Notes: generated by a model from the sequence alone, not told the origin. Positions 9,357 to 22,569 are shown, numbered from the stretch's first letter. The stretch is DNA of 29,809 nucleotides from an uncultured Flavobacteriales bacterium (GCA_964637935.1 CAZWXC010000001.1:4772-34580), one strand, 5' to 3'. Program-made: numbers and translations.

Positions 9357-9494
9357 ATGAAAAAAGAGCATCTTCCAACTAAAATATGCCTTGTTTGCCA
9401 AAGACCTTTTGCTTGGCGCAAAAAATGGCAACGCGATTGGGAAAATGTAAAATACTGCAGCGATCGATGCAGAAGATCATCTAAAGAATTATGA
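9357..9494 (+). CDS. DUF2256 family small Cys-rich protein (45 aa, not in the ORF track)
   Basis: Hand translation: [45 protein letters not shown]. The stop overlaps the cryptochrome start (ATGA at 9491-9494). Confidence 0.93.
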
Positions 9495-10864
9495 AAAAAA
9501 ATGCCTTAATCTGGATCAGAAACGATCAACGGCTGCATGATAACGAAGCATTGGTATCAGCCTTGGCCAATTATGAAGAAGTGCTTCCCGTTTTTGTTAT
9601 TGACAATAGGCTTTTTGAGCAATCGATCATAAATGAAAAAAGAGCATCAAATCGGAGGCTAAATTTCTTGGGAGAATCATTATTGAATCTTCAGTCAAAT
9701 TATAAAAATATTGGTGGCAACATACTTTGCCTGCAGGGCAAAGTGGCTGAAAAAATTATTTCTGTTTGCAAGCAATTTGAGATTGACACCATTTACACTT
9801 CGGCAGAATATACTGCCGAAGAGCAAAGTGATGAACTCCTAATAATGAAAGCAGGACTTAACCTGAAGCTTTTTCATCAGAATACATTGTTACACATTGA
9901 TGATCTAGATTTTGAAATAGAAAAGCTCCCAAACATATTTACAGAATTTAGAAAGCGAGTAGAAAAAGTTGGGCACTTCAGAACACCACTTCCGAAACCT
10001 TCTAAAATCAGAATTCCTGCTGGCATTGATTTTTCAGCAACGGAATTGAATATAAAAACACACTTGATTACGTCTATAGAAAACGACCCAAGGGCTGCAA
10101 TCACATTTGTTGGCGGAGAAACACAAGCTTTAAAAAGACTGCATTATTATCTGTTCGAATCTAAATCAATTGCCAACTATAAAGAGACAAGAAACGAGCT
10201 GTTAGGGGAAAACTACAGCTCAAAATTCTCAGCTTGGTTGACTTTAGGTAATATTTCAGCAAGGCAAATAAAAGCTGAAATAACAATGTTTGAAGAAAAC
10301 ATCACGAGCAACGAAAGCACTTATTGGCTGGTTTTTGAATTGCTTTGGCGAGACTATTTCAACTTTGTGAGCTTAAAATACGGCAAGAGGATTTTTACAA
10401 AATCTGGCATCAAAAAAGTAATACAAAACAGTGATGGTCAATCTAGCACTCATTTCGAAAACTGGAAAACTGGAAAAACTGGAAATACATTTGTTGATGC
10501 CAATATGGTAGAGCTTGTAAAAACAGGTTTTATGAGTAATCGTGGCCGTCAAAATGTTGCAAGTTATTTGGTGAAAGACCTAAATGTAAACTGGCAACTA
10601 GGAGCGTCTTTTTTCGAGCATCACCTCATTGACTTTGATGCCTCAAGCAACTTTTGTAATTGGCAATACGTAGCAGGCATAGGCAACGACCCAAGAGAAA
10701 ACCGATATTTCAACACCATTACTCAAGCACAGCGATATGATGCCGAAGCCATGTTCATCAAAACGTGGTTGCCCCATTTATCAAAACTTCATCCAAAAGC
10801 AGCAATTTCACCTTGGCTTTTCTATCCAAAAGAATACAAGCAACCTGTCTTTTTAAAGGAATAG
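9491..10864 (+). CDS. Cryptochrome DASH family photolyase-like flavoprotein
   Basis: N-terminal [53 protein letters not shown] and [16 protein letters not shown]. Confidence 0.92.
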
Positions 10865-13899: not shown

Positions 13900-14763
13900 A
13901 TGTTACGCACCCTTATAACGTCCCTAGTTATAGCAACCCAAATAAGCGCATTTGGTAGCGAAGTAAAAATCAGCGAGCTGAACAATGCGCAAGACAACTT
14001 TAAGTATGAAAATGCTGGAGTTGCAGTTTCGCCAGCGCACCTCAGATTCAATGTAGAACCAGGAGGAAGCAAAACGTCTAAAGTGACGATTAACAATGAC
14101 ACTGAAAGACCAGGTTCATTCAAACTATCGTTTAACGATTTTAACATGAATGGCTACGGCAAAAGTGAATTTTTGAAACCTGGAACCGGTGACCACAGTC
14201 TTTCTAAATGGATCAACGTTTCACCATCATTTGTTGAACTTAAGCCAGGCGAGAAAAAAGAAATCGTAGTTACCATAAGCGTTCCGGCTGATGATGCCGA
14301 TGCAAATAAGGCTGCATGGTGTGTGTTACTTGTAGAACAAGCTGAGGAACGTAAGACCATTGATCCGGGGAATAATTCAGAACAAATAGCATTTGGTATC
14401 ATACCAACATTTGCGTTTGGAGTATTTATCTATCAAAATCCACCAAATGTTGAGTCGAACAAAGTAGACATTATAGATTTTGACTTCTTCAGTAGTGAAA
14501 CTGAAAAAACACTTGCCATAGATGTTGAAAATGTGGGTGATGGCATCACTTACTGCAGCATTTATGTTGAACTCACCAACCTAAAAACAGGCGCAAGCGA
14601 GAAAATCGCAATGAAAACATTCACGATCGTGCCTGGCTTAAAAAGGGTATTTAAATTTCCTTTACCAGAAAACTACAGCACCGGAAGCTACTCTGCAGTA
14701 AGCGTGCTAGATTTTGGCAGCGATGAAGAATTGCAAGCTGCTGAAATAGAATTTACACTGTAA
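13900..14763 (+). CDS. Putative periplasmic fimbrial chaperone (two Ig-like domains, PapD/CfaA/DUF916-like)
   Basis: Signal peptide; GVAVSP..LRF, TINN, WINVSP..VELKPGEKKEIVV, and G1-like strand FAFGVFIYQNP; the second domain has IDVENVGDG and GSYSAVSVLDFG. Confidence 0.7.
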   Translation: MLRTLITSLVIATQISAFGSEVKISELNNAQDNFKYENAGVAVSPAHLRFNVEPGGSKTSKVTINNDTERPGSFKLSFNDFNMNGYGKSEFLKPGTGDHSLSKWINVSPSFVELKPGEKKEIVVTISVPADDADANKAAWCVLLVEQAEERKTIDPGNNSEQIAFGIIPTFAFGVFIYQNPPNVESNKVDIIDFDFFSSETEKTLAIDVENVGDGITYCSIYVELTNLKTGASEKIAMKTFTIVPGLKRVFKFPLPENYSTGSYSAVSVLDFGSDEELQAAEIEFTL

Positions 14764-14810: not shown

Positions 14811-15587
14811 ATGAAAAAAATCACAGGAACCGCAGCTGCATTTCTAGGACTTGCATTTGCCGCAAACGCTCAGTTAATCGATGAAAAAGATGTTACAGTA
14901 ACCATGGATTTACAGCCAGTACTGCAACTTGAGATGACTACGCCAAACCAAATCGAGTTCACATTCGATGAAATTTCTGAATACTACGCTGGTATTACAC
15001 AATATGCGGCTACCATTCTAAAAGTAAGTTCAACTGTAAGTTGGGATTTGTATGCAGTTGGCCGTTCAAACGGAACAAACGGTGCTGAATTCTGGGATCA
15101 ACAAATTGACTATGGTAACGACAACCCAAACGCAATTCCTGATCTTCCATTGAGCTTATTAGAACTGCGTCAATCTCAAGCAAACAACGGTGATGGTGCT
15201 GCAACAGGCGCATTCACAGATTACAACCAAGCTTTTTCTCCATCAGGAACTCCAAGTGCTGGTAACAGTCTTTATGTAAACGGTGGTACAATCACACCTC
15301 CAACCGCAGATGACAAGTATATTGCTGGTCACTCAGGTACTTCAGGTGTGGCTGGTGATGACTTTATTGCTGGTGGTAGCTACTTAACTCAAACTGGAAA
15401 TACTTCTGATTACTATTACGCAATCGATTACCGTATTCTTCCTGGTTTGCCAGCTATTTTCCCTAACGCTGCTGATGCAGACGGAGCAACATTTGAAGAC
15501 ATCATTACTGTAAATGGCGCTGGTTCTTATGCTGAGCCAGGTGTTTACACTATGTACGTTCAGTATGTTCTTCTTGAAGATCAATAG
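14811..15587 (+). CDS. Putative major fimbrial subunit with N-terminal donor strand
   Basis: Signal peptide ending AANA|Q; mature N-terminus EKDVTVTMDLQPVLQL; C-terminus PGVYTMYVQYVL; G/T/N/D/A-rich and Cys-free; followed by a hairpin. Confidence 0.7.
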   Translation: MKKITGTAAAFLGLAFAANAQLIDEKDVTVTMDLQPVLQLEMTTPNQIEFTFDEISEYYAGITQYAATILKVSSTVSWDLYAVGRSNGTNGAEFWDQQIDYGNDNPNAIPDLPLSLLELRQSQANNGDGAATGAFTDYNQAFSPSGTPSAGNSLYVNGGTITPPTADDKYIAGHSGTSGVAGDDFIAGGSYLTQTGNTSDYYYAIDYRILPGLPAIFPNAADADGATFEDIITVNGAGSYAEPGVYTMYVQYVLLEDQ

Positions 15588-15611
15588 TAGCAAGGCATCA
15601 ATATAATATTG

Positions 15612-15650
15612 AAAAAGCCGATGCTCCATTACCGGGTATCGGCTTTTTTT
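15612..15650 (+). terminator. Intrinsic terminator or mRNA-stabilising hairpin after the major subunit
   Basis: aaaaa-GCCGATGCTC-cattacc-GGGTATCGGC-ttttttt: a 10-bp stem with two G-U pairs and a 7-nt U tract. Confidence 0.85.
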
Positions 15651-15683
15651 GCCTTTACTTGCACACCCTTTCACCCACAACCA

Positions 15684-16292
15684 ATGAAACTGTTTTTTAC
15701 AGTATTTTTTCTGACGCTTTTCCCAGTTTATAACTGGGCTCAGCTGCATTGTGGCACGGTGAACATAGAACCAAACACACCTGTTAATGCCAATTTCACA
15801 TTCGACTCATTTACCGATTATGAAGGTGGAATAACCATTAACAATGTTGCAACCATAAGAGTCAAGGTAGAGCATCAAGCTATACCAGACTTAGATTGTA
15901 AGTGGTTTTTATACATGCAAGTAAACAATAACCCAGGCTCAGGCACCGCAGCTCCTAATTGGGAAAAACTCTCAAACTATGGAAGCACTGGTGGTTCTGA
16001 ACCGTCTATCGACATCTTAGAAATTAAGGTTCGAAACAATTGTCAAACTTCACCTATTGACGGTATTTACCAGAGTTTTACCACCAATGGAGATGTAATT
16101 GACATTATCGCAGATTTGCTTCCACTTACAGCTGCTGGCGCTTGTGCTGCTAACACCAATGGTCCAGGAAGCTTTCTCACGAATTATGACGAATACACCT
16201 TTACGGTAGATATTAGAGTAGCGCCTGGCTACACATTCAACCCAGGCATTTATGAGCTTGATATTCTCTTTCACTTAGAAGAGCAACTTTAA
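15684..16292 (+). CDS. Putative minor/tip fimbrial subunit, 202 aa (start moved from 15609 to ATG 15684)
   Basis: Signal MKLFFTVFFLTLFPVYNWA|Q. It shares FTFD...Y..GIT and the C-terminal PG.Y strand with the major subunit and has 4 Cys. The 15609 start would translate through the terminator. Confidence 0.65.
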   Translation: MKLFFTVFFLTLFPVYNWAQLHCGTVNIEPNTPVNANFTFDSFTDYEGGITINNVATIRVKVEHQAIPDLDCKWFLYMQVNNNPGSGTAAPNWEKLSNYGSTGGSEPSIDILEIKVRNNCQTSPIDGIYQSFTTNGDVIDIIADLLPLTAAGACAANTNGPGSFLTNYDEYTFTVDIRVAPGYTFNPGIYELDILFHLEEQL

Positions 16293-16320: not shown

Positions 16321-19242
16321 TTGAAAAACCTCCTTACCATACTATTATTGGTGCTTTTAACAGGCTTGAATTGTAGCAACAGCTTTGCTCAGTTGAGGTC
16401 TTTGGATGCATCACAATTTGAGGTAAGTTTCTCAAAAGATGAAATAGAATTCTTAAACACCGAGTTGGTTTCTAACCCTATTAAGGTGGTCAACAAATCG
16501 AAAGAAGATGTGGTGGTTTACCTAGAAGTGGGTGCGCCACCTGCTTGGAAAGCGCTCGGTTCTACTAAGCGAAGCTATTCTTTGCCCGCAGGCGACACAG
16601 CATATATTCCTGTAAGGCTTTTACCAAACGCCAAAGTAGAAGGAAACACCAAGTATGCCATCAACGCTATTCTAAGAGACCAAGATGGTTTTGCCTTGGG
16701 TTTCGGCTCATTTTATTGTTTCACAAAAAAAATTGTTCAATGGGAAATGAGCATATTACCAGAAGATCGAGTTTACCTTAAAAATGGTGAGTCGGAAGGC
16801 GACTTTCAGGTTTCGATGCTCAACGTAGGTAATTACACTGACGAATTTCAACTTTCTATTAAAGGTGGTGAACGAGAAGATGTGTTGTTGATGGATACGC
16901 TTGGCAACATTATTAAGCAACCGAGTTACACATTGGCCCTTGATGCTGGCCAAGACACAACATTGAGTTTTAGGGTAAAACCAACATCCATCAAACGAAA
17001 TTTTAGAACGGTCAGCATGACCAGTCATCGCCCGCAAAGCGAGACTGACGAAAGGAGGTTTAGGCTTTATGCCACCAGCCAAGAAGCAAAAAATATGGAT
17101 AAGACCATACCGAAGCGCGGGGCCAAGGTTGACTTCATAAGCCTCGCAAACGAGGCAGCCGTTTCGCCCTATGGAAGTGATTACTTCCCGCTAATAGCCG
17201 AAGCCCAAATACAGAACATACTAAGTGATTATAGTTACATGTCCGTTAATCTCCGGGGAATAAAACAGTTTCAAGGCGATAAGCGGCTTGTCTATTTTAC
17301 ACAACTGCTCTATTCTCAAAATTATTTCAGCACCAATTTCGCCCAAAACTTGCCTTGGTATTTGGGCTATTTCGATAAAAACTGGGACCTACAACTTGGC
17401 TTAGTAAGTGGCCGAAGTATCGGTATTCCATCAAGTGGAAGAGGAATAAGTTCGAGCTACCGAATCAATGAGCAACATAAAGTGGGCGCACACCTCACCC
17501 GCAGTCCATCCATGTTTGGCCCAAGCCGAATTTTATCGATGGGCGCTTATCACGAATACAGCGGCAACAAGTTTAGGGTTACCTCAAGCCTTACTCGAAA
17601 CCAAGATAGCTTGATCAATGCCAACACAAATGTGCTTAGCACAAGAGCTAGTTTTAGAATTGGCAGAAACCATAATGTAGGCGCACTTATAGCTGGAAGC
17701 AATACCAACTATACCGACACCAATGCCACTCGTTTGGGAATAATCAGCGGTTTGACCTACTCGGGAAATATGCTCAACGAAAAGCTGAGAGCAACATTAA
17801 ATACGCGCTACAGCAGCCGTTCTTTTGGTGTTAGTAATTCAGAGCGTTTTAGTGGAAACTCGCGCATTAGCTACCAGCTCAACAATCGTTGGCAATTGCA
17901 AGGTTTGAATAACCTGAATATAAACAACCGCTTTCAAAGCCAGTTTAGCGATACTGTGTTGAACAAATTCATGACCTCAACCAACCGCGTGAACTTTGTG
18001 TCTAGAGCAAACAAAGGAACGTTGCAAGCAGGTGTTTTCTATGATATCAACAGCCAAACCAATTATAACAATCACTACAGAGGTTTAGCATTTAACTATA
18101 GTAAGTTCGACTTTAGTAAAAACATGCTTTATAACGGAAGTATCAAATTCGGATACAATCGCCCACAAAACATGCCCGAGATTTCAGAATATTTTACTGC
18201 ACAAGTTGCATTGTTGATGCGTATTAAGACAGTTACATTCAATTTCCGCTATTTCTACGGGCCATCAAACCCTCAGGTGTTGATCACAAACGTAACCAGC
18301 ACTTATCCGCAACAGTTTAGAGCTTCAACGCAATATCAATACTTGTTTAAAAACACCCATTTCGTATTACAAACTGGTGGAAACTACACCTATAACAACC
18401 TTATCAACGGGCATTCGGTGAGTGTTTTTCCAGAGTTCTTCTATTTCACAAATGATGGTTGGCGCTTGAGTGTAAATGCTAATTACACCCTGACTTCTTC
18501 TAACTTCCAAAAAGCGACTAGCAACCTAAACATTACTCGAAATTTAGAAGATCCAAACCCCGGACCAACAGTGAGCAATACCATGCGCTTTGGGGTTACC
18601 GTTCGCAAAGAATTCGGTATTCCGGTTCCGTTTTCGAAAAGCAAAAACTATGATCTTGATTTTGTGGCATTTTATGACCTAAACGGCAACGGAGTGCACG
18701 ATAGAGATGAGCCAACCATTGAAAATGTGGTGCTTACGCTAGAAGACAAACAAATAATTACCAACCTGCGTGGCGAAGCCAAATTGAAAAACGTGCCTAG
18801 TGGTTTTTATGGCATTGGTGTGTTGCCGCTCAATAGCATCAACGGCTGGTTTGCTGAGGTTGAAGACAGCTTGTTTATTGGCGAGCACCAAACCGTTTAC
18901 ATCCCATTCATGCGTGGAGTAAAAGTGAGCGGAAAAGTGATGATTGACCTTGACCAACGCACCCGTAGTGAAGATGATGTGTTTGACCTATCTAACATTA
19001 AAATTACTGCTGTAAACGGCAAAGCTTACAACACACTAACCTCGCTTGACGGTAGTTTCGAGTTGTATTTACCAAACGGCACTTACACTATTTCGCTTGA
19101 CGAAAATGTGCTTACAACCAAGTATCAATTGATGCAAAACAACATGGAGGTAACGCTAAGTCGCGACCTCGAAAATATGTTTGTCACCTTCTTTATTGTT
19201 GAAAAGAGAAGGTCCATAAACATTAAAAAATTCGATAAATAA
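16321..19242 (+). CDS. Large outer-membrane protein, usher-like: 2 N-terminal Ig-like domains, beta-strand-rich core, 2 C-terminal prealbumin/SdrD-B-like domains
   Basis: TTG start, signal ending SFA|Q. Aa ~290-765 is an alternating aromatic/polar strand pattern ending RFGVTVRKEF, followed by FYDLNGNGVHDRDE...RGEAKLKNVPSGFY and VSGKV...DGSFELYLPNGTYTISL. Confidence 0.65.
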   Translation: MKNLLTILLLVLLTGLNCSNSFAQLRSLDASQFEVSFSKDEIEFLNTELVSNPIKVVNKSKEDVVVYLEVGAPPAWKALGSTKRSYSLPAGDTAYIPVRLLPNAKVEGNTKYAINAILRDQDGFALGFGSFYCFTKKIVQWEMSILPEDRVYLKNGESEGDFQVSMLNVGNYTDEFQLSIKGGEREDVLLMDTLGNIIKQPSYTLALDAGQDTTLSFRVKPTSIKRNFRTVSMTSHRPQSETDERRFRLYATSQEAKNMDKTIPKRGAKVDFISLANEAAVSPYGSDYFPLIAEAQIQNILSDYSYMSVNLRGIKQFQGDKRLVYFTQLLYSQNYFSTNFAQNLPWYLGYFDKNWDLQLGLVSGRSIGIPSSGRGISSSYRINEQHKVGAHLTRSPSMFGPSRILSMGAYHEYSGNKFRVTSSLTRNQDSLINANTNVLSTRASFRIGRNHNVGALIAGSNTNYTDTNATRLGIISGLTYSGNMLNEKLRATLNTRYSSRSFGVSNSERFSGNSRISYQLNNRWQLQGLNNLNINNRFQSQFSDTVLNKFMTSTNRVNFVSRANKGTLQAGVFYDINSQTNYNNHYRGLAFNYSKFDFSKNMLYNGSIKFGYNRPQNMPEISEYFTAQVALLMRIKTVTFNFRYFYGPSNPQVLITNVTSTYPQQFRASTQYQYLFKNTHFVLQTGGNYTYNNLINGHSVSVFPEFFYFTNDGWRLSVNANYTLTSSNFQKATSNLNITRNLEDPNPGPTVSNTMRFGVTVRKEFGIPVPFSKSKNYDLDFVAFYDLNGNGVHDRDEPTIENVVLTLEDKQIITNLRGEAKLKNVPSGFYGIGVLPLNSINGWFAEVEDSLFIGEHQTVYIPFMRGVKVSGKVMIDLDQRTRSEDDVFDLSNIKITAVNGKAYNTLTSLDGSFELYLPNGTYTISLDENVLTTKYQLMQNNMEVTLSRDLENMFVTFFIVEKRRSINIKKFDK

Positions 19243-19270: not shown

Positions 19271-19292
19271 CATCACACCTTTGGTCACCACC

Positions 19293-20762
19293 ATGAAAAC
19301 AGCCATTATTATCGGTTCAGGAATTGCTGGCTTGGCATCAAGCATAAGACTCAGTTTAGCTGGCTACAGCGTGAAAGTATTTGAAGCAAACAGCTATGCT
19401 GGCGGAAAGCTTCACGCCTTTAGTCTTGGCCAATATCGTTTTGATGGCGGACCATCGCTGTTTACCATGCCCCATTATGTTACCGAGCTTTTTACCCTAG
19501 CGGGGAAAAACCCCAAAGACTATTTCGAGTATGAAAAAGCCGAAACTGCTTGCCATTATTTTTGGGAAGACGGCACCTTTATTCGCGCTTTTGCCGAAAC
19601 TGAAAAATTTGCAGCCGAAGTAGAGCAAAAACTGGGCGTTGAAGCCAAGGTAATAACCGATTACATGGCTCATGCAAAGAACATTTACGATCATTCGGGT
19701 AAGATATTCCTAGAAAAATCGCTTCACAAACCCAGCACTTGGCTTAGCAAAGAAACCTTGATTTCATTGCTCAAAATCAAGCAATTTGATTTAACCAAAA
19801 GCATGCACCGCGCCAACAAAATACGCTTGGGCGAAGACCATTTGGTGCAACTTTTCGATCGATTTGCTACTTATAATGGTTCAAACCCATACAAAGCACC
19901 GGGCATTTTGAATGTGATTCCATGGTTAGAACATGGCTTCGGCACGTTTTTCCCAAAAGGCGGAATAGAACAAATTCCAGAATCACTGTTTAAGCTTGCA
20001 CAGGAACTTGGTGTTACGTTTCACTTTTCTCATAAAGTAGATGAAATAGTGCTTGATAAAAAGCGTGCTATTGGCATAAAAACTGGCGGAAAGTTGCACA
20101 AAGCCGACATCGTAATGAGCAACATGGATGTTCATTTCACTTACAGAAAACTAATGCCTAAGGCTAAAGCTCCCGAACGAATTTTAAACCAAGAACGCTC
20201 TTCTTCTGCCCTTGTTTTTTATTGGGGAATCAAGAAAAACTTTCCTCAATTAGATCTCCACAATATCTTTTTCAGCAAAGAATACAAAGCAGAATTTGAT
20301 GCACTATTTGATCAACAAACTATTGGCAATGATCCAACTGTTTACATCAATGTATCGAGCAAAATTGCACCAGAAGATGCACCCAAAGACAGCGAGAATT
20401 GGTTTGTAATGGTAAATGCGCCCAACCACAACGGGCAACATTGGCCGCAACTCATCCAAAACACAAGATCAGCTGTATTGAAAAAGCTAAGCAAGATTCT
20501 AGGCGAAGACATTGCTCCGCTGATTGAAGAAGAAAAAATTTGGTCGCCACCCGAAATTGAGGCTGATACATTGAGCTATAAAGGCGCACTTTATGGCAAT
20601 AGCTCAAACAGCCAAATGGCTGCTTTTCTGCGACATCCAAACTTTAGCAATCAAATTAACAACCTCTACTTTTGTGGCGGAAGCGTGCATCCTGGTGGCG
20701 GCATTCCGCTTGCATTGCTTAGTGCAAAAATTGCTTGTGAATTTGTAGCATCGCGCAACTAA
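19293..20762 (+). CDS. crtD: 1-hydroxycarotenoid 3,4-desaturase CrtD (ATG 19293; in-frame TTG at 19281 is an alternative)
   Basis: GSGIAGLA dinucleotide-binding motif, FEANSYAGGKL...YRFDGGPSLFTMP, RFATYNGSNPY.APG, LYFCGGSVHPGGGIPL. The pattern fits flavobacterial CrtD rather than CrtI, and the gene is fused by overlap to cruF. Confidence 0.85.
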   Translation: MKTAIIIGSGIAGLASSIRLSLAGYSVKVFEANSYAGGKLHAFSLGQYRFDGGPSLFTMPHYVTELFTLAGKNPKDYFEYEKAETACHYFWEDGTFIRAFAETEKFAAEVEQKLGVEAKVITDYMAHAKNIYDHSGKIFLEKSLHKPSTWLSKETLISLLKIKQFDLTKSMHRANKIRLGEDHLVQLFDRFATYNGSNPYKAPGILNVIPWLEHGFGTFFPKGGIEQIPESLFKLAQELGVTFHFSHKVDEIVLDKKRAIGIKTGGKLHKADIVMSNMDVHFTYRKLMPKAKAPERILNQERSSSALVFYWGIKKNFPQLDLHNIFFSKEYKAEFDALFDQQTIGNDPTVYINVSSKIAPEDAPKDSENWFVMVNAPNHNGQHWPQLIQNTRSAVLKKLSKILGEDIAPLIEEEKIWSPPEIEADTLSYKGALYGNSSNSQMAAFLRHPNFSNQINNLYFCGGSVHPGGGIPLALLSAKIACEFVASRN

Positions 20763-21382
20763 TGGAATGGAATAAAATCAACATATCGATTGCTGTGCTC
20801 ATCATATTTCACATGGTGGGTATCGGTGGCGTGTTGCTGGCAAATCCTATTGAGTTTTTGCGCTTAACGCCTCTCAACTTGCTGCTTACACTCGCTATTG
20901 TTTTAGTAAACCACCAGCAATGGAAGTTCGCATGGGTTTTTATTGTGACTTATGTAGCTGGCTTTTTTGTAGAAGTACTTGGTGTAAATACAGGTTTCCC
21001 TTTCGGGGAATATGAGTACGGCAGCGTACTTGGCCCAAAATTGTTTGAAACGCCATTAATGATTGGCGTAAATTGGTTGATATTGCTCTATGCCAGCAAC
21101 GCCATTTCAAAGCATTTCGGCTTGACCGTAATAACAAAAGCACTGGGCGCTGCAGCGCTAATGGTGGTGCTTGATTATGCCATTGAACCTGTGGCTATTA
21201 AATATGATTTTTGGACTTGGGCGCAAGCCGAACCACCGTTTGAAAATTACATGGCTTGGTTTGTTATTGCCTTCTTGCTTTCGCTGGTTTGGCAATGGAC
21301 AAAAATTGAATTGAACAAGAAAATTGCGATCGCTGTTTACAGCGTAGAACTTGGCTTTTTCGCATTGCTAAATTTGTTTTAG
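20762..21382 (+). CDS. cruF: Carotenoid 1,2-hydratase CruF (DUF422 family)
   Basis: E.LGV.TG.PFGEY.Y...LGP.L...PL.IG.NW, D...EPVA....FW.W and P..NY.AWF; TAATG overlap with crtD. Confidence 0.85.
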   Translation: MEWNKINISIAVLIIFHMVGIGGVLLANPIEFLRLTPLNLLLTLAIVLVNHQQWKFAWVFIVTYVAGFFVEVLGVNTGFPFGEYEYGSVLGPKLFETPLMIGVNWLILLYASNAISKHFGLTVITKALGAAALMVVLDYAIEPVAIKYDFWTWAQAEPPFENYMAWFVIAFLLSLVWQWTKIELNKKIAIAVYSVELGFFALLNLF

Positions 21383-21386
21383 AATT

Positions 21387-21845
21387 ATGATTTTGAATGT
21401 CATTATAACCATCGGCACCTTCTGCATCATGGAGTTTATGGCTTGGGCCACGCACAAATATGTGATGCACGGTTTAGGCTGGTATTTTCACAGAGATCAT
21501 CATCAGCATGAAGCTGGCGTGTTTGAGAAAAACGATGTTTACTTTCTTATTTATGCCATACCAAGTTGGCTGTTTATCATGTTTGGAATGATGGCTGGCA
21601 ACGATTGGCGCACATTTGTAGGTTTTGGCATTTTGCTTTATGGCATTGCCTATTTCTTGGTTCATGAAGTGTTCATACACCAGCGTTTGCCTTGGTTTAA
21701 ACGCACCGACAATGTCTATTTTAGAGCTATAAGAAAAGCACACAAAGTGCATCACAAGCATTTGGGCAAAGAAGAGGGCGAATGTTTCGGAATGCTGATT
21801 GTGCCGTTGAAATATTTTAGAGAAGCCACAAAATCAGTGCGTTAA
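21387..21845 (+). CDS. crtZ: Beta-carotene 3-hydroxylase CrtZ
   Basis: His boxes HKYVMHG, HRDHH, YF.VHE..IHQR and H..HH; also FEKND and E.FG.L. Confidence 0.93.
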   Translation: MILNVIITIGTFCIMEFMAWATHKYVMHGLGWYFHRDHHQHEAGVFEKNDVYFLIYAIPSWLFIMFGMMAGNDWRTFVGFGILLYGIAYFLVHEVFIHQRLPWFKRTDNVYFRAIRKAHKVHHKHLGKEEGECFGMLIVPLKYFREATKSVR

Positions 21846-21870
21846 TTTTATTTGAATAATAACCACCACT

Positions 21871-22569
21871 TTGGATTTCATACCTGATCGATATATTTAT
21901 TTACTCATCAATGTGCTTACCATAGCTTATCCGCTTGCACAGAGCTATGAAAAACGCATCCGATTGCTACAGCATTGGAAAGCCATTTTTACGAGTATTG
22001 CGATCACTGGTGCTGTGTTTTTAGCTTGGGATGAGCTTTTTACGCAGCTCGAAGTGTGGGGTTTTAATGGTCGCTACCTTACAGGTGTTTACATCGGTGC
22101 GTTGCCCATAGAAGAATGGGGCTTTTTCTTGACTGTTCCGTTTGCCTGCATCTTTATATACGAAGTGCTGAATCATTTTATCAAGAAAGACATTTTCGCA
22201 AACAGTCATCAAGCCATCACCTTATTTTTCTTGATGGTAACCACATTTTTAGGTTACTATTTTCATGATAGAATGTACACTTCCACAAGCTTTTTCTTTG
22301 CTGCTATATTGCTTTTAGGGCAATTGATGGTGTTTCGCTACAGCTGGATGGGCCGATTTTACATGATGTACTTTGTGAGTTTAATTCCCTTTCTAATCAT
22401 GAATGGATGGCTTACTGGCAGTTTTACAGACGAACCCATTGTTTGGTACAACAACCTCGAAAACATGGGCTTGCGCATTTTCACCATACCAGCAGAAGAC
22501 ACTATTTATTTGCTGGGTATGCTGCTACTCACCTTTATGGTATACGAGAAGGTGAAAGTGAAGCCTTAA
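21871..22569 (+). CDS. crtY: Lycopene cyclase, membrane-bound two-repeat (CrtYcd/CarR-type) domain protein
   Basis: Hydrophobic with two repeats: W.FN..YL.G......PIEE..FF and V.YN..E....RI.TIP.ED; TTG start; last gene of the crt run. Confidence 0.85.
   Translation: MDFIPDRYIYLLINVLTIAYPLAQSYEKRIRLLQHWKAIFTSIAITGAVFLAWDELFTQLEVWGFNGRYLTGVYIGALPIEEWGFFLTVPFACIFIYEVLNHFIKKDIFANSHQAITLFFLMVTTFLGYYFHDRMYTSTSFFFAAILLLGQLMVFRYSWMGRFYMMYFVSLIPFLIMNGWLTGSFTDEPIVWYNNLENMGLRIFTIPAEDTIYLLGMLLLTFMVYEKVKVKP

Follow-up and report, generated by a model that had tools for sequence, protein, structure and literature searches.

A four-gene Bacteroidota operon that probably encodes and assembles a TLP-1-type donor-strand-exchange fibre

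Introduction

Which fibre is built from the protein encoded at positions 14811–15587 (+ strand) of a 29,809-nucleotide stretch of DNA from an uncultured Flavobacteriales bacterium (GCA_964637935.1 CAZWXC010000001.1:4772-34580; henceforth ‘the window’, meaning the whole stretch analysed), and by what machinery? The initial annotation of this gene took its product for a class-5 pilin, i.e. a relative of CfaB of the Escherichia coli CFA/I fimbriae, in which the N-terminal strand of one subunit would complete the incomplete immunoglobulin (Ig)-like fold of a neighbour and long variable loops would cover the surface. Here, we find that this donor-strand mechanism agrees, by homology, with the structures solved for fibrils TLP-1a and TLP-1b, and that the family assignment does not hold: the protein is very probably a TLP-1-type donor-strand fibre subunit and does not belong with the E. 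coli CFA/I pilin. In full, our explanation is that 14811–15587 codes for the major protomer of a fibre built by donor-strand exchange in the manner of TLP-1, in a Flavobacteriales-like Bacteroidota metagenome-assembled genome (MAG), and that assembly follows the mechanism outlined below. We hold this to be probable, with greater confidence in the identity as a TLP-1-type donor-strand subunit and less in the steps that involve chaperone and usher.

TLP-1a/b were solved by cryogenic electron microscopy (cryo-EM) straight from filtered pond water of the Tsinghua Lotus Pond (Wang et al., PNAS 2024, PMC11494351). TLP-1 forms 8-nm helical tubules with a 15-Å lumen and long loops directed outward, in which protomer n receives strand beta1 from protomer n+4 between its own beta2a/2b and C-terminal beta7, so that its Ig-like domain is complete (PMC11494351). 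Mass-spectrometry and metagenome searches did not identify the source organism or gene, and among predicted structures the best match was a Flavobacteriales protein without annotation (PMC11494351). In the text of that paper, ‘operon’ and ‘gene cluster’ are absent, and ‘chaperone’ and ‘usher’ occur in the reference list only. TLP-1a/b have thus been assigned no organism, gene, or machinery, whereas the gene described here lies in a defined genome and within an operon.

The major subunit and its homology to TLP-1 fibrils

The coordinates initially given for the open reading frame (ORF) and for its donor strand, which is exactly E25–L40, proved right. The parts of the gene that matter for the argument are:

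14811–15587, + strand: gene 2, major fibre subunit of the TLP-1 family, 258 amino acids (phmmer matches to PDB chains 9IKK_A/9IKJ_A; family profile)
14811–14870, + strand: signal peptide, residues 1–20 (probable cleavage between ANA and Q21; the solved TLP-1 chains begin at the equivalent position)
14883–14930, + strand: donor strand beta1, E25–L40, EKDVTVTMDLQPVLQL (identity to TLP-1a/b, conservation in the family, likeness to CfaB)
15537–15572, + strand: C-terminal strand, P243–L254, PGVYTMYVQYVL, equivalent of beta7 lining the acceptor groove (aligned to the C-terminal strand of the TLP-1 chains)

In a phmmer search against the PDB, residues 22–256 of the protein matched residues 2–236 of chains 9IKK_A (E 3.4e-49) and 9IKJ_A (E 6.7e-48), and these entries were confirmed to be the TLP-1a/b fibrils. 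A profile built from 37 diverse family members matched only the two TLP-1 chains (9IKJ/9IKK; 4.6e-65 and 1.1e-63). The homology runs from end to end, with approximately 44% identity by our own count, equal mature length, and conserved core and C-terminal strands, the differences lying in loop regions. Over residues 22–40, 16 of 19 are identical to the TLP-1a/b donor strand. The solved chains begin one residue ahead of the position aligned to L22, that is, at the position of Q21, and the signal peptide is not in the TLP-1 cryo-EM map (PMC11494351).

The alignment of the 37 family members shows the same division, with conserved strands and indel-rich loops. The beta1 donor strand is highly conserved, and G244, Y246, Y252, and L254 of the C-terminal strand are nearly invariant. 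By homology to the solved fibre, therefore, the N-terminal segment would not fold into its own core, and the body would be an incomplete Ig-like fold. A Pfam scan of the major subunit matched no family, and an NCBIfam scan of all four operon proteins returned nothing useful. Homologues of the major subunit number 930 at 90% clustering, and at 50% identity only 127 clusters occur among 1.84 billion representatives; the gene is present as a single copy in its own genome.

Some relatives are considerably longer. In proteins of 420–457 amino acids (P0158, P0164, P0167, P0169, P0176–P0179, P0181, P0183, P0184, P0188, and P0199), the TLP-1 domain, including the donor-strand region, occupies the C-terminal half and is preceded by an N-terminal part of approximately 200 amino acids of unknown nature; a Pfam scan of four of these relatives identified no family. 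Tandem pilin domains are one possible reading, adhesin-type subunits with two domains another.

Comparison with class-5 pilins

The proposed relationship to CfaB was examined against the sequence translated from plasmid p948 of enterotoxigenic E. coli H10407 (L001:38571-39083), of which the mature N-terminus is VEKNITVTASVDPVIDL. E25–L40 aligns to this N-terminus as an ungapped 16-mer with 8/16 identities and a BLOSUM62 score of 45. This score was reached in none of 2000 shuffles, the best ungapped 16-mer between shuffled mature sequences scoring 25.6 ± 3.6, and in none of 5000 shuffles limited to the N-termini. BLASTP of the major subunit against CfaB also recovers the donor-strand segment (E 0.004 for this single pair, signal peptide included). 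The N-terminal match reported initially is real, but the CfaB string quoted for it differed from the true one at a single residue (A for V). The second proposed match, between the C-terminal PGVYTMYVQYVL and AGNYSGVVSLVM of CfaB, has 4/12 identities and a score of 15 that was reached by 423 of 5000 shuffles; it is therefore not above chance and carries no weight. The difference in size had been estimated correctly, at approximately 237 mature amino acids here and 147 in CfaB, and the family alignment places the additional ~90 residues of the TLP-1-type subunit in the indel-rich variable loops.

Beyond the donor strand, the likeness to class 5 ends. The class-5 pilin family PF04449 (Fimbrial_CS1), present in all 18 CfaB homologues fetched, was not matched by the major subunit at E up to 1, by any of the 37 TLP-1-like family members at E up to 0.1, or by any protein of the genome at E up to 10, the MAG being 78% complete. 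When a profile of the 37 TLP-1-like sequences was aligned by hhalign to a profile of 15 class-5 pilins, the match comprised 44 columns only, covering signal peptide and donor strand (probability 69.5%), and did not extend over the pilin body. Searched against the PDB at E up to 10, the TLP-1-like family profile matched no CS/CFA pilin. There was likewise no signal in hhalign comparisons of the operon’s chaperone profile with CfaA (probability 1.1%) or of its outer-membrane (OM) protein profile with CfaC (0.5%); the chaperone shares with CfaA only the two-domain chaperone fold. In the ESM Atlas, the named clusters nearest to the pilin are SCPU (archaic chaperone–usher pilins) and WxL, not CS1, which we take as leads only.

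The two systems do resemble each other in plan. Class-5 systems (CFA/I CfaABCE, CS1, CS17) and the system described here are each encoded by four genes in an operon: those for the chaperone (chaperone-like here), the major subunit, the OM assembly protein (putative here), and a tip-type subunit lacking the donor strand. A donor strand of the common pattern EK[ND]-[VI]-T-[VI]-T...P...L (VEKNITVT type) stands at the N-terminus of the major subunit in either system, and both fibres would form by donor-strand exchange, here by homology. However, the order of genes is chaperone, major, usher, and tip in CFA/I and chaperone, major, minor, and OM protein here; the class-5 chaperone belongs to PapD_N and the present one is of the DUF916 type, and the OM protein here is without a match to the Usher family, neither PapD_N nor Usher being matched by any of the orthologues. 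Additionally, the class-5 rod is a single, one-start thread with an n+1 donor, whereas the solved TLP-1 homologue consists of four threads with an n+4 donor. We therefore reject a class-5 (CFA/I) pilin identity, on the combined grounds that PF04449 is lacking, that the match stops at the donor strand, and that chaperone and OM protein are unlike CfaA and CfaC. The view taken in the initial annotation, that of a true, highly diverged class-5 (alpha, Fimbrial_CS1) pilin with enlarged loops and CFA/I-like assembly, is, given the evidence above, very improbable. Since the likeness to CfaB is confined to the donor strand, it looks like a local one, reflecting a constraint common to such strands, or an ancestry that is very remote, and not membership in class 5.

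A conserved four-gene operon

The major subunit gene is the second of four co-oriented genes. The other members of the operon are:

13900–14763, + strand: gene 1, periplasmic chaperone-like protein with two Ig-like domains, 287 amino acids (signal peptide, PF06030, AF2 model, Foldseek)
15612–15650, + strand: stem-loop preceded by an A-run and followed by a T-run (folding with flanks; 79/79 loci)
15684–16292, + strand: gene 3, paralogous minor subunit, 202 amino acids from the ATG at 15684, after the hairpin (BLASTP to the major subunit; synteny)
16321–19242, + strand: gene 4, OM protein and putative usher, 973 amino acids (AF2 model, Foldseek, synteny)

A scan of one genome per species yielded 97 relatives, of which 80 loci were kept. 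The order chaperone, major subunit, ORF of approximately 200 amino acids, and OM protein of approximately 980 amino acids is maintained in all 80 loci wherever the contig is long enough, and the flanking genes differ. Carriers are found among Flavobacteriales (Vicingaceae, Salibacteraceae, Crocinitomicaceae, and Flavobacteriaceae), Bacteroidales, Chitinophagales, and Sphingobacteriales, and in one Chlorobiota MAG; some of them are cultured strains, among them Pseudotenacibaculum haliotis KCTC 52127, Wenyingzhuangia heitensis DSM 101599, W. aestuarii DSM 105044, Flavicella sediminum and F. marina, and Polaribacter uvawellassae (loci L019, L052, L053, L044, L071, and L069). The module is rare; a sample of 400 other Bacteroidota genomes contained a single carrier. 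Identity across loci is 62–87% for the major subunit, 43–70% for the chaperone, and 29–55% for the OM protein, the minor subunit being mostly below tblastn detection. Even between different orders, the major subunit is 62–67% identical and the OM protein approximately 30%. The rarity of the module, taken together with the conservation of its major subunit, suggests that the fibre subunit is very strongly constrained, that the module has spread laterally, or both.

Variation within the module was observed at a few loci. Between the genes for the major subunit and the OM protein, L062, L069, L070, and L074 have 1.4–2.4 kb with extra ORFs (e.g. one of 310 amino acids in L062), and much longer OM proteins, of 1140–1384 amino acids, occur among L038, L041, L046, and L069; these may represent additional subunits or added domains. 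Three of the four operon proteins of the window share a predicted signal-peptidase site followed directly by Gln, namely ANA-Q (14868–14873), NWA-Q (15741–15746), and SFA-Q (16386–16391). An N-terminal pyroglutamate on exported proteins is a habit of Bacteroidota, which fits this pattern.

The chaperone-like protein

Gene 1 matches PF06030 (WxLIP_PGBD, formerly DUF916) above the curated cut-off (29.3 versus 27.3 bits), as do 31 of 35 gene-1 orthologues, with a best E of 2e-10; PapD_N was matched by 0 of the 35 orthologues and PF11797 (DUF3324) by 0 of the 35 family members. The AF2 model (predicted local distance difference test [pLDDT] 85) consists of two Ig-like domains, the first of the DUF916/WxLIP type. 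A Foldseek search with this model ranks the Enterococcus WxLIP structures first (9i25/9i1y, 9e-14), followed by CsuC, CfaA, Caf1M, and FimC (~1e-10); the gene-1 profile hidden Markov model, searched against PDB sequences, gave only spurious matches to synaptotagmin C2 domains (E 1e-4). In the model, a strand (139–147) is followed by a low-confidence loop (148–171), a second strand (172–179), and then domain 2, and the protein ends in a beta strand (279–286), without a C-terminal transmembrane helix. Strand 172–179 (FAFGVFIY) is alternately hydrophobic and lies within a near-invariant PTFAFGV..YQNPPNV block, and we consider it the candidate for the G1 donor strand of the chaperone.

A complex of the major subunit (41–258) with the chaperone (36–287) was predicted with a score of 0.48, the best of three controls reaching 0.00; at least 77% of contacts are common to the runs, and the pLDDT of the partner is at least 71. 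This counts as weak support, a mark that 58 of 80 solved complexes attained, along with 2 of 110 mismatched pairs; at 0.60 or under, it was attained by only 7 of the 80 solved complexes and by both passing mismatches.

A described counterpart of this chaperone is in Gram-positive bacteria. The DUF916/DUF3324 protein ElrE of Enterococcus faecalis is reported to be anchored in the membrane and to serve a Gram-positive pilus as a chaperone that complements by donor strand, and the paired DUF916/DUF3324 system was reportedly found only in Bacillota (preprint, October 2026; bioRxiv 10.64898/2026.10.17.759780). Neither Bacteroidota nor TLP-1 is mentioned in that preprint (bioRxiv 10.64898/2026.10.17.759780). 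The resemblance raises an alternative, in which the operon would have branched off, in diderms, from the WxL (Elr-type) pilus of Gram-positive bacteria, with a diverged WxL pilin, a soluble DUF916 chaperone, and an OM barrel added secondarily. In both systems, PF06030 is the Pfam family of the chaperone’s first domain, which here has its best structural matches in WxLIP (9I1Y, 9I25); Elr pilins, like the TLP-1-type pilin, combine an N-terminal donor strand with an incomplete beta sandwich and are served by a DUF916 chaperone; and the Atlas automatically names the cluster of the pilin ‘putative WxL domain-containing protein’, with a WxL cluster among the nearest named ones (0.90), which is a lead only. 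Against this, the SCPU cluster scores equally in the Atlas; PF13731 (WxL) is matched, at E up to 1, neither by the pilin nor by the genome; and the chaperone has no DUF3324 match and, with its signal peptide only, is soluble, whereas ElrE is anchored by a C-terminal transmembrane helix. The two settings differ further in that no LPxTG or sortase gene was seen among the four genes, an OM barrel is present, and the host is a diderm member of Bacteroidota, outside the phylum to which the preprint confines the paired system. We regard such a derivation as somewhat unlikely; being a claim about ancestry, it is compatible with the TLP-1-type explanation preferred here.

The outer-membrane protein

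The AF2 model of gene 4 (pLDDT 84) comprises two N-terminal Ig-like domains (~33–221), a barrel (~285–768), and two C-terminal prealbumin/Ig-like domains (~776–961). The barrel appears to have approximately 26 strands and to lack a plug, both counts resting on the DSSP string and an MtrB match only. The PF00577 usher, by comparison, has a 24-strand barrel with a plug, an N-terminal domain, and two C-terminal domains. Foldseek places the FimD usher first (2e-13, in an alignment of 816 columns that takes in the periplasmic Ig-like domains), followed by PapC, with low TM-scores; PF00577 (Usher) was matched by 0 of 29 gene-4 orthologues, and the gene-4 profile had no matches among PDB sequences. 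Therefore, we call the protein ‘usher-like’ by architecture and position, and its role as an usher is putative.

In the first C-terminal domain, residues 784–797 (18670–18711) form a conserved loop, F.D.NGNG..D..E, in which F784, D786, G789, N790, and E797 are invariant in the 29 orthologues. The loop lies within an SdrD_B-matched region and resembles a calcium-binding loop.

The alternative that bears on gene 4 is assembly without an usher. The gene-4 product would then serve as an anchor, as a secretion pore for monomers, or in a separate OM function, and the four threads would arise extracellularly by polymerization that is TasA-like or, in the Elr manner, chaperone-nucleated. We consider this improbable. 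The gene for the OM protein is strictly syntenic with the pilin gene in all loci with enough sequence, the FimD match extends through the periplasmic Ig-like domains, and a folded Ig-like subunit in a diderm requires an exit through the outer membrane. The pilin, in which no Pfam domain was found, ends right after its last strand, so that there is no room for a separate C-terminal secretion-signal domain.

The comparison with archaic (sigma) pili also shows differences. Archaic pili such as Csu (CsuA/B-CsuC-CsuD) and CupE are single, thin zigzag threads exported by PF00577 ushers, whereas TLP-1 forms four-thread tubules and the barrel of the operon has no PF00577 match; SCPU (PF05229) was not matched by the pilin.

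The minor subunit and the stem-loop

Gene 3 is related to the major subunit (BLASTP E 2e-05), aligning from residue 38 of the latter onward. Behind its signal peptide, the mature N-terminus QLHCG leads directly into the second strand, the donor strand being absent. An ORF of approximately 200 amino acids occupies this position in nearly all loci. Among 62 minor subunits, the donor motif occurs in none, Q[ILV]HC opens 50, PG.[YF] closes 55, and four Cys are present in most. Such a subunit can accept a strand but not donate one, so only the distal end of a thread is a possible position for it, and we predict that the gene-3 product is the distal tip or initiator subunit.

The stem-loop between genes 2 and 3, folded with its flanks (15585–15660), has a minimum free energy of -29.5 kcal/mol (z -6.0). 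A hairpin of -13 kcal/mol or below within 70 nucleotides of the major-subunit stop codon is present in all 79 related loci (median -20.4); the same criterion is satisfied by 3 of 79 shuffles and by 4 of 68 regions behind the OM-protein gene, the last of the operon. Across the window and loci L002–L081, position and strength are conserved and the sequences are unrelated. A simple terminator scan missed this hairpin because of its loop rule; folding detected it. We read the structure as an attenuator/terminator or as an mRNA-stabilizing hairpin that would raise the ratio of the major subunit to the accessory proteins.

Three aquifer metatranscriptome libraries contain contigs with at least 99% identity to the window, mostly on the major gene (14930–15554), with single further pieces at 15608–15776, on the minor gene, and on the gene for the OM protein (overall 14930–16093 and 17965–18115). 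As evidence for transcription these are weak, because contigs cannot rank genes and DNA may occur in RNA libraries, and the lack of contig cover over the other parts of the operon in the three libraries is uninformative. At 99–100% identity, they do indicate that the organism, or a near-identical strain, is present in the groundwater samples.

Proposed assembly

Taken together, the data suggest the following course of assembly for a TLP-1-type fibre. The major subunit would be exported by Sec and cleaved before Q21. Its body (~41–258) would then be an incomplete Ig-like sandwich with variable loops facing outward, leaving residues ~25–40 as a free beta strand, an arrangement seen in the solved homologue. 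In the periplasm, the open groove would be capped by the soluble two-domain DUF916/WxLIP-type chaperone of gene 1, which would donate its strand ~172–179; this step is suggested by fold, Pfam family, gene order, and the weak complex prediction. The capped subunits would be delivered to the 973-amino-acid OM barrel of gene 4 acting as an usher, as its architecture and synteny suggest. The N-terminal strand of an incoming subunit would there replace the chaperone strand, as is established for the homologue, and, if the lattice of TLP-1a/b applies, protomer n+4 would donate to protomer n, giving four donor-strand threads wound into an 8-nm tubule with a 15-Å lumen. In TLP-1 itself, the tubule is four-start, with a rise of 11.5–12.3 Å and a twist of 75–78 degrees. 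The gene-3 paralogue, an acceptor body lacking the donor strand, would be placed only at the distal end, as tip or initiator, and the conserved stem-loop would set a high ratio of major-subunit expression to that of minor subunit and usher.

Several points weigh against this scheme. The PDB sequences of TLP-1 were read from density at 3.2–3.5 Å with the aid of a predicted homologue (PMC11494351), and residue identities to them are therefore approximate. The predicted chaperone–subunit complex gives weak support, and strand 172–179 is a candidate for the inserted strand. Finally, a four-thread n+4 fibre is unexplained by the classical chaperone–usher model of one usher and one thread.

We advance one further proposal, tentatively: the TLP-1 operon could represent a third lineage of chaperone-assisted donor-strand-exchange pili, beside the classical chaperone–usher pili and the Gram-positive WxL pili, characterized by a soluble DUF916-type chaperone, a barrel of ~26 strands outside PF00577, a four-thread hollow tubule, and donor-less minor subunits that would nucleate several threads grown in register.

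Significance

Whatever its ancestry, the operon assigns the orphan TLP-1 fibre to a defined set of four Bacteroidota genes, present in the window and in 80 syntenic loci, and, as some carriers are in culture, the fibre is therefore genetically testable. To our knowledge, Bacteroidota are known for type V (protease-primed) pili and not for chaperone–usher-like ones. In the searchable literature, we found no paper that connects a gene cluster with TLP-1, or Bacteroidota with chaperones of the DUF916 family. What appears to be new is the operon, which brings together a soluble chaperone of the DUF916 type, a barrel without a PF00577 match, a host among the diderm Bacteroidota, and a tubule that would have four threads; the subunit family was already known structurally. 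The occurrence of a DUF916 chaperone here, set beside the restriction of the paired system to Bacillota reported in the preprint, suggests an evolutionary bridge between the donor-strand pili of monoderms and diderms. The locus also raises a mechanistic question, namely how a four-thread n+4 donor-strand lattice is built at an outer-membrane pore.

Neighbouring genes

On either side of the operon (9491–10864 and 19281–22569), the window holds a cryptochrome/photolyase-like gene and carotenoid genes of the phytoene desaturase-like, hydroxylase-like, and cyclase-like types. These cryptochrome and carotenoid genes adjoin the pilus module elsewhere only in L004.

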